From the NCBI RefSeq assembly GCF_003018115.1, contig NZ_CP027457.1: 64,000 bases of DNA, one strand, 5' to 3'. The position numbers were made by a program, and so were the translations under genes. Shown piece by piece: positions 55,522 through 58,990 of this stretch. The number at the start of each line of letters is the position of its first letter. Within the stretch, counting starts at the first letter, position 1. This DNA comes from Escherichia coli. Lineage in GTDB: Bacteria; Pseudomonadota; Gammaproteobacteria; Enterobacterales; Enterobacteriaceae. The notes beneath the pieces were generated by a model that searched no databases, had not been told where the DNA came from, and was given only the letters and a program-made list of their open reading frames with translations.

Positions 55522-56415
55522 TTAATCCTGACGAAGGACTTTGTGACCATAATCGAGTAACGCATCAGTGACTTTACGCATCATGCGGCTTTCAGGAGCA
55601 AAGCGGTGCCAGTAGAGCATCCGTCGTTGAAATAGCCCAGGCGTTAAGTCAATCAGTTCACCGCTGGCCAGCTCTTTCTCGATTTGCAGGTGCGGGATCA
55701 TACAGCAGGTGGTGCCCTGGCGAGCAAGTTGTACGAACGCTTCTGAAGAATTAACGATATGGCAGGGCACGCTGCCTGGAGGCAGATCGAAGTTTTGCTG
55801 CAAAAAGGCCTGGTGCATATCGTCAAGATGGTCAAACGCGACCACTGGCGCTTTCAGTAATGCCGAACGCGTTACGCCGTTAGGGAAATATTTTTCGGCA
55901 AAGGGTTTTGAGCTGACGAACAGATAGTCGAGCGCACCAAGTTTATCGACAAGACAACTCGGCAGCGCCTGATGTTGAATACTCACCGCGCCGACCACTT
56001 CGCCGCGGCGCAGACGTTCCTGAGTGCGGGTTTCATCTTCTACCTGCAAGTTGAGGCGGATAGGCGAATCAGCCAACACAGGAGCCAGTGCAGGAAGCAA
56101 CCACGTCGCCAGACTGTCGGCGTTGACCGCCAGTGAAAGCAGCAGCGGAGTCGAACCGGTTTGTTCATCGCCCAGCCACTCTTCTTCCAGCAACTCCACC
56201 TGGCGCAGCAGTGCCAGCAGTTTTTGACCTTGTTCCGTTGGGCGCGGCGGTACGGTACGCACTAACAGCGGCTGCCCGAACATATTTTCCAGTTGCTTAA
56301 TGCGCTGTGAGACGGCTGATTGTGTAATGCACAGCTTTTGTGCCGCGCGCTCAAATCCTCGTTCACGTATCACCGCATCCAGTGCCTGTAATGTTCTGTA
56401 GTCCGGGCGTTTCAT
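55522..56415 (-). CDS. argP: LysR-type regulator ArgP (IciA)
   Basis: ORF 55522..56481; start set at [15 protein letters not shown] (297 aa). Confidence 0.94.
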
Positions 56416-56556
56416 TGCTGTTGTCTGCTCCTGGTAAATGCTTTTTCCTGCACTATGACACAATTTTGTGTCAGGTTGCATATACCGAAGCCGTCGGCGG
56501 GTAACATTTGTATTCGTGGTTAAACGCGCAGCTTAAAAGATCAGGGATTTGCGCTA

Positions 56557-56787
56557 ATGCATTTCGCTCAGCGAGTTCGCGCCCTGGTTGTGTTGAATGG
56601 CGTGGCGTTATTGCCTCAATTTGCCTGTAAACAGGGGCTTGCGAACGGTGAACTGGTGCGCCTGTTTGCACCGTGGAGCGGCATACCCAGATTGTTGCAT
56701 GCCTTATTTGCGGGGCGAAAGGGGATGCCTGCCATTGCGCGATATTTTATGGATGAGTTAACCACGCGGCTTGCCAACGGGGTCTGA
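56557..56787 (+). pseudogene. yqfE: Remnant encoding only the C-terminal end of a LysR-family regulator (yqfE-like pseudogene)
   Basis: 76-aa ORF resembling the C-terminal effector-domain end of LysR proteins (LVRLFAPW...); no N-terminal HTH anywhere upstream. Confidence 0.5.
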
Positions 56788-56842
56788 ATCGCTTTTTTTG
56801 TATATAATGCGTGTGAAATTTCATACCACAGGCGAAACGATC

Positions 56843-57502
56843 ATGACGCAGGATGAATTGAAAAAAGCAGTAGGATGGGCGGCACTTCAGTATGTTCAGC
56901 CCGGCACCATTGTTGGTGTAGGTACAGGTTCCACCGCCGCACACTTTATTGACGCGCTCGGTACAATGAAAGGCCAGATTGAAGGGGCCGTTTCCAGTTC
57001 AGATGCTTCCACTGAAAAACTGAAAAGCCTCGGCATTCACGTTTTTGATCTCAACGAAGTCGACAGCCTTGGCATCTACGTTGATGGCGCAGATGAAATC
57101 AACGGCCACATGCAAATGATCAAAGGCGGCGGCGCGGCGCTGACCCGTGAAAAAATCATTGCTTCGGTTGCGGAAAAATTTATCTGCATTGCAGACGCTT
57201 CCAAGCAGGTTGATATTCTGGGTAAATTCCCGCTGCCAGTAGAAGTTATCCCGATGGCACGTAGTGCAGTGGCGCGCCAACTGGTGAAACTGGGCGGTCG
57301 TCCGGAATACCGTCAGGGCGTGGTGACCGATAATGGCAACGTGATCCTCGACGTCCACGGCATGGAAATCCTTGACCCGATAGCGATGGAAAACGCCATA
57401 AATGCGATTCCTGGCGTGGTGACTGTTGGCTTGTTTGCTAACCGTGGCGCGGACGTTGCGCTGATTGGCACACCTGACGGTGTCAAAACCATTGTGAAAT
57501 GA
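56843..57502 (+). CDS. rpiA: Ribose-5-phosphate isomerase A
   Basis: ORF 56771..57502; start set at [12 protein letters not shown] (219 aa). Confidence 0.96.
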
Positions 57503-57757: not shown

Positions 57758-58990
57758 ATGGCAAAGGTATCGCTGGAGAAAGACAAGATTAAGTTTCTGC
57801 TGGTAGAAGGCGTGCACCAAAAGGCGCTGGAAAGCCTTCGTGCAGCTGGTTACACCAACATCGAATTTCACAAAGGCGCGCTGGATGATGAACAATTAAA
57901 AGAATCCATCCGCGATGCCCACTTCATCGGCCTGCGATCCCGTACCCATCTGACTGAAGACGTGATCAACGCCGCAGAAAAACTGGTCGCTATTGGCTGT
58001 TTCTGTATCGGAACAAACCAGGTTGATCTGGATGCGGCGGCAAAGCGCGGGATCCCGGTATTTAACGCACCGTTCTCAAATACGCGCTCTGTTGCGGAGC
58101 TGGTGATTGGCGAACTGCTGCTGCTATTGCGCGGCGTGCCGGAAGCCAATGCTAAAGCGCACCGTGGCGTGTGGAACAAACTGGCGGCGGGGTCTTTTGA
58201 AGCGCGCGGCAAAAAGCTGGGTATCATCGGCTACGGTCATATTGGTACGCAATTGGGCATTCTGGCTGAATCGCTGGGAATGTATGTTTACTTTTATGAT
58301 ATTGAAAACAAACTGCCGCTAGGCAACGCCACTCAGGTACAGCATCTTTCTGACCTGCTGAATATGAGCGATGTGGTGAGTCTGCATGTACCAGAGAATC
58401 CGTCCACCAAAAATATGATGGGCGCGAAAGAAATTTCACTAATGAAGCCCGGCTCGCTGCTGATTAATGCTTCGCGCGGTACTGTGGTGGATATTCCGGC
58501 GCTGTGTGATGCGCTGGCGAGCAAACATCTGGCGGGGGCGGCAATCGACGTATTCCCGACGGAACCGGCGACCAATAGCGATCCATTTACCTCTCCGCTG
58601 TGTGAATTCGACAACGTCCTTCTGACGCCACACATTGGCGGTTCGACTCAGGAAGCGCAGGAGAATATTGGCCTGGAAGTTGCGGGTAAATTGATCAAGT
58701 ATTCTGACAATGGCTCAACGCTCTCTGCGGTGAACTTCCCGGAAGTCTCGCTGCCACTGCACGGTGGGCGTCGTCTGATGCACATCCACGAAAACCGTCC
58801 GGGCGTGCTAACTGCGCTGAACAAAATCTTCGCCGAGCAGGGCGTCAACATCGCCGCGCAATATCTACAAACTTCCGCCCAGATGGGTTATGTGGTTATT
58901 GATATTGAAGCCGACGAAGACGTTGCCGAAAAAGCGCTGCAGGCAATGAAAGCTATTCCGGGTACCATTCGCGCCCGTCTGCTGTACTAA
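57758..58990 (+). CDS. serA: D-3-phosphoglycerate dehydrogenase
   Basis: 410 aa, NAD Rossmann motif plus C-terminal ACT domain. Confidence 0.98.
   Translation: MAKVSLEKDKIKFLLVEGVHQKALESLRAAGYTNIEFHKGALDDEQLKESIRDAHFIGLRSRTHLTEDVINAAEKLVAIGCFCIGTNQVDLDAAAKRGIPVFNAPFSNTRSVAELVIGELLLLLRGVPEANAKAHRGVWNKLAAGSFEARGKKLGIIGYGHIGTQLGILAESLGMYVYFYDIENKLPLGNATQVQHLSDLLNMSDVVSLHVPENPSTKNMMGAKEISLMKPGSLLINASRGTVVDIPALCDALASKHLAGAAIDVFPTEPATNSDPFTSPLCEFDNVLLTPHIGGSTQEAQENIGLEVAGKLIKYSDNGSTLSAVNFPEVSLPLHGGRRLMHIHENRPGVLTALNKIFAEQGVNIAAQYLQTSAQMGYVVIDIEADEDVAEKALQAMKAIPGTIRARLLY

Follow-up and report, generated by a model that had tools for sequence, protein, structure and literature searches.

The closest described counterpart of this locus is yqfE (b2915) of Escherichia coli K-12 MG1655, a 231-bp ORF at the same rpiA-argP position, 55 bp from rpiA and 138-141 bp from argP, which is marked as a pseudogene in the MG1655 RefSeq annotation. 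Literature searches on yqfE, b2915 and argP/iciA promoter mapping yielded nothing specific to this locus besides the removal of yqfE and its neighbours in the viable reduced-genome strain DGF-298 (PMC10652928) and a remark that argP is probably not a PhoB target. The window, which is the whole 64,000-nt stretch of E. coli DNA analysed here (contig NZ_CP027457.1), carries the gene order scpA (minus strand), argP (minus), a 424-bp gap, rpiA (plus) and serA (plus) at 53-59 kb, and was compared with K-12 and other complete genomes across the gap. DNA identity to the K-12 yqfE region was 98.8-99%, and a 501-bp query (56380-56880) gave 100% identity with strain F9792 and 98.8% with K-12 DH1, and had a match in 5425 of the 5426 complete E. 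coli genomes. The window allele differs from K-12 yqfE and belongs to another E. coli lineage, with four substitutions in 15 bp that produce P to L and Y to H changes in the LysR-derived part and one synonymous change.

The remnant is an already known, curated, non-functional pseudogene, and the analysis confirms that curation. Added here are the chimeric start of the ORF, the identity of the block of genes that was lost, the persistence of that block in ~4% of strains, and its repeated loss; these details are tidy and unsurprising, and the finding is an ordinary one with little significance for biology at large.

Composition of the argP-rpiA interval

The interval at 56416-56842 was delimited as the argP-rpiA intergenic region, bordered by the minus-strand argP ATG (complement 56416-56418) and the plus-strand rpiA ATG at 56843, in agreement with the placement of the remnant in a preliminary description of this DNA. 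Its sole sizeable ORF is the 76-codon frame at 56557-56787, for which the preliminary coordinates and description matched the ORF list exactly, and which was correctly equated there with the K-12 yqfE pseudogene, since its 231-bp length and its spacing to rpiA and argP are equal in MG1655. In most genomes PGAP predicts a protein from the ORF, under the label "LysR substrate-binding domain-containing protein" or "hypothetical protein"; in O157:H7 it calls no CDS at the yqfE position. The left neighbour is an intact LysR-type regulator, and is named argP in all matching E. coli genomes. Features of the region are as follows.

55522-56418, minus strand: argP (iciA), left neighbour, outside the remnant (HTH_1 E 1.6e-18, LysR_substrate E 1.1e-12)
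56419-56471, minus strand: argP 5' leader and putative core-promoter region (99% identity to island-bearing strains; similarity ends at 56471)
56472-56515, no strand: filler of ~44 bp at the left deletion junction (single copy in 5176 of 5426 E. coli genomes)
56516-56594, minus strand: 3'-end fragment of an FMN-dependent NADH-azoreductase gene, residues 182-207 of 209 (tblastn and blastn)
56557-56787, plus strand: chimeric 76-codon ORF, equivalent of yqfE (b2915) (ORF list; ATG start; MG1655 annotation)
56595-56787, plus strand: LysR remnant, codons 236-298 and stop, end of the effector-binding domain (98% DNA identity; Pfam; tblastn)
56788-56842, plus strand: rpiA leader and putative promoter region (TATAAT at 56803-56808; sequence read directly)
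56843-57502, plus strand: rpiA, ribose-5-phosphate isomerase A, right neighbour (Pfam Rib_5-P_isom_A E 5.9e-61)
57758-58990, plus strand: serA

Profile searches with the ORF matched residues 15-72 to positions 151-208 of 209 in the Pfam LysR_substrate model (E 1.4e-5, 25 bits, just below the gathering cut-off of 28 bits), and gave a match to positions 237-297 of 303 in the NCBIfam LysR equivalog PRK14997 (E 7e-6); by themselves these matches are only suggestive of a LysR origin. With regard to the features that define a LysR-type transcriptional regulator (LTTR), the DNA-binding domain HTH_1 (PF00126) was not found in the 76-aa ORF by Pfam search, the effector domain (LysR_substrate, PF03466, ~209 positions) was represented by positions 151-208 only, and descent by orthology at the same locus was seen as ~98% DNA identity over codons 236-298. 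The full-length tblastn that the preliminary description had proposed was run with the intact LysR of strain F2_81 (298 aa; HTH_1 at residues 4-63 and LysR_substrate at 88-294 by Pfam) against the whole window, and matched only 56575-56784, where residues 229-298 align at 87% identity with a significant E of 1.8e-34; residues 1-228, HTH included, had no match in the intergenic region or in the rest of the window. Since residues 1-228 were unmatched by tblastn, no HTH-coding sequence survives, and the preliminary description was right that such sequence is absent upstream and, from the Pfam, NCBIfam and tblastn matches together, that the resemblance is limited to the extreme C-terminus of LysR. 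Blastn of 56595-56900 gave 98% DNA identity to the final 63 LysR codons and rpiA leader of F2_81 and A16. This similarity to LysR is far beyond chance. The LysR-derived share of the ORF is its C-terminal 63 of 76 codons (56595-56787), which are codons 236-298 of the 298-aa regulator; the apparent likeness of the first ORF residues to LysR in the tblastn alignment (VRALVVL vs LQAVLGG) is fortuitous.

The ATG at 56557 and the first 13 ORF codons are not LysR sequence; they are antisense to the 3' end of the azoreductase gene. AzoR residues 182-207 were placed by tblastn on the minus strand at 56593-56516 (81% identity, E 5e-9 for the whole window), and 56537-56594 showed 88-93% DNA identity by blastn to the azoR 3' end in four block-bearing loci (L003, L004, L006 and L010). 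The junction between the azoR and LysR fragments at 56594|56595 is blunt, with no shared bases and no microhomology, and corresponds to 3267|4614 in L004, the locus of F2_81; the left junction is at 56471/56472. Because the ATG and the first 13 codons read the azoreductase scrap backwards, the ORF is an accidental in-frame fusion created by the deletion. Its LysR portion has the marks of a pseudogene in being a truncated copy with identifiable deletion junctions and intact relatives. A start codon taken from the antisense strand of another gene is a caution for pipelines that name such an ORF a LysR substrate-binding domain-containing protein.

To look for a source of the filler, the segment 56472-56536 was aligned locally with the island of five genomes and with the rest of the window, where it scored no better than shuffled sequence; blastn searches further afield found no second copy in E. 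coli genomes and no source outside E. coli in the plasmid collection. The only resemblance seen was a weak, colinear one to the 3' part of the block's ferric-reductase gene (p 0.01 with Escherichia sp. E1V33, p 0.09 with F2_81), and the filler may be a heavily diverged tail of that gene. The 58-bp azoR scrap differs at 5 sites from every E. coli island allele (4 of them synonymous in the azoR frame), and 3 of the 5 are shared with E1V33, whereas the LysR scrap is nearly identical to E. coli island alleles. Since one scrap is divergent and the other nearly identical, the sequences left and right of the junction seem to have had separate allelic histories. Import of the left part from a lineage with a divergent azoR adjoining argP was considered and found to be unsupported, as the minus-frame peptide, searched against 5.8 billion proteins, matched only spurious E. 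coli/Shigella ORF calls.

The ancestral block and its distribution

Genomes that retain an intact gene at this site, with which the preliminary description had suggested comparison, were found in MSB1_4I, F2_81, A16 and outgroups. In the first three, an intact 298-aa LysR lies directly upstream of rpiA (WP_000568124.1 / WP_072169413.1 / WP_024189814.1), with residues 236-298 that are 97-100% identical to the remnant, and with the 3' flank and rpiA junction shared with the window. The gene there is complete and faces an azoreductase/DUF1471/ferric-reductase operon, whereas the window is without codons 1-235 and without the whole operon. The intact block consists of four genes.

L004:1515-2840 (F2_81), minus strand: NOX-like ferric reductase, 441 aa, with Ferric_reduct transmembrane, FAD_binding_8 and NAD_binding_1 domains
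Minus strand: DUF1471 (YdgH/BhsA/McbA-like) periplasmic stress protein, 86 aa
Minus strand: FMN-dependent NADH-azoreductase, 209 aa, with a Flavodoxin_2 domain
Plus strand: LysR-type regulator, 298 aa, 100 bp from the azoreductase start and just upstream of rpiA

The domain set of the ferric reductase is a NOX-like architecture, and the gene is missing from the window. The arrangement of LysR and azoreductase is the classical divergent layout of an LTTR and its target, from which we infer that the lost regulator controlled the redox/stress operon. The best family-level matches of the intact protein were of the PRK14997, YafC and AaeR type (NCBIfam; E 1e-49, 3e-44 and 1e-36), for which the remnant gave E 7e-6 to 0.06. 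The intact protein scored 169 bits against the 380-bit cut-off of PRK14997, and since all equivalog scores fell far under their cut-offs, the ancestral regulator is a distinct uncharacterised LTTR, and none of PRK14997, YafC or AaeR.

The block was surveyed in 5426 complete E. coli genomes, with presence counted at >=80% coverage, and was found in 233 of them (4.3%). The copies fall into no fewer than three haplotype classes, at >=99%, ~98.2% and ~95% identity to that of MSB1_4I, and IS1 or IS5 interrupts several of them. The K-12-type junction and mosaic, which is the allele of the window, was present in 5156 of the 5426 genomes. Beyond E. coli, the block was likewise found between argP and rpiA, in E. 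whittamii and Escherichia sp. E1V33 (LysR intact, ferric reductase degraded), in Escherichia sp. MOD1-EC7003 (same synteny, LysR frameshifted), and in a Pseudocitrobacter MAG (LysR 73% identical, azoR absent, ferric reductase degraded). Since the "empty" site holds gene fragments of the block and outgroups share its synteny, the block is ancestral and the window state is derived. In one strain, WB61, and in no other of the 5426 genomes, a single deletion removed ~2.98 kb between the 3' end of the ferric-reductase gene and approximately codon 210 of LysR, and its different end points show that the block was lost at least twice, independently. As a separate observation, the ferric-reductase gene was inactivated repeatedly: several E. 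coli strains have IS1 or IS5 inserted in it, and internal deletions disrupt it in E. whittamii, E1V33, MOD1-EC7003 and Pseudocitrobacter.

The interval is very probably a non-functional deletion scar of this four-gene block. In the proposed sequence of events, whose order and number of deletions are our reconstruction, the ancestor of Escherichia would have had the four genes between argP and rpiA, and in the lineage that makes up ~95% of sequenced E. coli, ~3.1 kb would have been removed. Three scraps would have been left, namely the ~44 bp of filler, ~80 bp of the azoreductase 3' end, and 63 LysR codons with their 3' flank, the last carrying the putative promoter region of rpiA; the 76-codon yqfE ORF would then have arisen because an antisense ATG within the azoreductase scrap is by chance in frame with the LysR tail. 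The ancestral content of the argP-rpiA interval is hereby made explicit as a redox/quinone-stress block, presumably LysR-controlled and still polymorphic in E. coli, and the locus serves as a modest, well-dated case of genes being lost stepwise and repeatedly in a single species.

Putative promoter elements and the retained LysR tail

On the argP side, ACTATGACA at 56452-56460, which is TGTCATAGT when read in the direction of argP, is a putative extended -10 of that gene. TGTCATAGT is conserved in cryptic Escherichia clades and Pseudocitrobacter, in a leader of which the rest is ~78-81% identical, and since it lies in a segment common to both genome types, the argP core promoter was probably left untouched by the deletion. 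Between E. coli and the cryptic Escherichia clades (L010-L013) the leader diverges to ~77-81% identity although the ArgP protein is 99.3-99.7% identical; across Escherichia clades only the ATGTCATAGT motif and the Shine-Dalgarno-proximal part are conserved within it.

On the rpiA side, TATAAT at 56803-56808 lies 35 bp before the rpiA ATG and is a putative rpiA -10; from TATAAT onward, island-bearing strains are 100% identical. Strict-consensus, terminator and Rfam scans of 56300-57000 found no full promoter/sigma-70 consensus, no intrinsic terminator and no Rfam family. Any -35 or UP region of rpiA would overlap the last LysR codons. An alternative to a scar without function is a cis requirement: the LysR tail would have been kept as the -35/UP region of rpiA and the left scraps as argP upstream sequence, such that only deletions sparing the tail were viable. 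The position of TATAAT 16 bp past the LysR stop, which makes promoter-upstream DNA overlap the end of LysR, is consistent with this reading, as are the two independent deletions (K-12-type and WB61) that both spare the LysR 3' end, and the stretch from 56788 to rpiA, which is invariant in six aligned remnant alleles. Such a requirement would, however, reach at most ~60 bp beyond the -10 on its upstream side, whereas the deletions kept 193 bp (K-12-type) or ~270 bp (WB61); the presumed ERIC element of MSB1_4I shifts all LysR DNA ~120 bp from the -10 without loss of rpiA, and many lineages tolerate the loss of 45 bp from within the tail. A cis requirement is therefore considered unlikely, and a non-functional scar is preferred; promoter overlap may explain why both deletions spared the very end of LysR, but not the persistence of ~190 bp.

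MSB1_4I carries a 119-bp insertion (L003:20260-20378) between the LysR stop and rpiA, equivalent to window 56803-56806, which we take to be an ERIC element from an exact reverse complement of the ERIC2 primer (CGCTCACCCCAGTCACTTACTT) and a copy of ERIC1R with one mismatch. The insertion interrupts the TATA of the putative -10 of rpiA, where a duplication of TATA restores TATAAT. The LysR-rpiA gap is similarly enlarged in MOD1-EC7003 (L013). In MSB1_4I, argO, the arginine exporter gene and best-known ArgP target, is split by IS1A (L003:7047-8459).

Decay, coding capacity and strain HS-02

Further disruption of the remnant, as expected of a pseudogene, was found in some lineages, in addition to the non-synonymous changes of the window allele. 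In the O157:H7 and LP5-1 alleles the ATG is changed to TTG and an in-frame TAG stands at codon 5, and a 45-bp in-frame deletion (15 codons, window 56624-56668) is present in O157:H7, LP5-1 and strain 0-4, and common in other lineages; this additional damage in O157:H7-type alleles argues against function. The deleted 45-bp segment is flanked by a short GCCT repeat. A count of 2147 genomes for the 45-bp-deletion allele was discarded as unreliable, because in undeleted genomes BLAST joins its pieces over the gap.

The 63 LysR-derived residues of K-12, CFT073, WB61 and HS-02 are identical to those of the intact A16 protein, and the LysR scraps of K-12 and CFT073 differ by 4 synonymous and 0 non-synonymous changes. 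Taken alone, the unchanged residues could suggest constraint, but they would be more simply explained by a young deletion and polymorphism inherited from intact alleles, and allele comparisons gave no evidence of constraint that would have acted after the deletion. Since only 1-2 of 192 nt separate the K-12 remnant from the intact LysR of F2_81 and A16, the deletion is young relative to the diversity of E. coli, and the intact block is still segregating. The preliminary description is thus supported in calling the sequence a gene remnant, with the refinements that the allele is a non-K-12 one, that the ORF is a chimera made by deletion, and that "ancient" was overstated.

The predicted product would be without the winged-helix domain, the linker helix and ~70% of the effector-binding domain, losses with which it could not act as a LysR regulator. 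A purine-rich AGGGA is found 9 nt upstream of the ORF ATG, and the yqfE ORF could be translated if the region is transcribed.

Strain HS-02 (L015:7480-7843, NZ_CP172818.1) shares the blunt azoR|LysR junction of the common remnant, joined to an island-type left flank, and retains an IS1-disrupted ferric reductase, DUF1471 and the azoR tail. It was initially a candidate for a true intermediate of a two-step deletion, which was dropped: HS-02 is a singleton and is 99.6-100% identical on both sides of the junction to the intact-island strain FDAARGOS_497, so that either the identical deletion recurred or the assembly is chimeric. The assembly is small (4.5 Mb) and has frameshifted genes, and could be chimeric or mixed. 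A recurrence, if real and independent, would point to a site-directed mechanism, or to unusual recombination that spreads the junction without the flanking alleles. Very little probability is assigned to the pair of alternatives that an identical, microhomology-free 1346-bp deletion occurred twice, as HS-02 would imply, or that the chimeric ORF is an expressed de novo micro-protein.

Lower still is the probability given to the ORF being a newborn expressed small protein, for example a dominant-negative partner of other LysR-type regulators. The intact 76-codon frame with its ATG and weak upstream AGGGA, the unchanged LysR-derived residues in several lineages, and the PGAP protein calls in most genomes would fit such a product, but the frame is broken in O157:H7-type alleles and LP5-1 by start loss, the in-frame TAG and the 15-codon deletion, the window allele has gained the P to L and Y to H changes, the strict scan found no upstream promoter consensus, and the locus is curated as a pseudogene in MG1655. 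In LTTR structures, the part of the effector domain that corresponds to LysR_substrate positions 151-208 of 209, here scoring below the Pfam cut-off, cannot by itself form either Rossmann-like subdomain, and a protein made of it would be unable to do so.

With the non-functional scar retained as the preferred reading, the remaining alternative, in which a minority of strains gained the block recently by horizontal insertion and the yqfE-like ORF is convergent with LysR or unrelated to it, has next to no probability and is already refuted by fragment homology: the block is indeed present in few E. coli genomes, but the "empty" site holds colinear fragments of two block genes at 91-98% DNA identity, which insertion cannot create and which show no sign of being mobile-element ends, the same site is occupied in outgroup Escherichia clades and Pseudocitrobacter, and the E. 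coli island haplotypes are up to 5% apart, as expected of an old, vertically inherited polymorphism.
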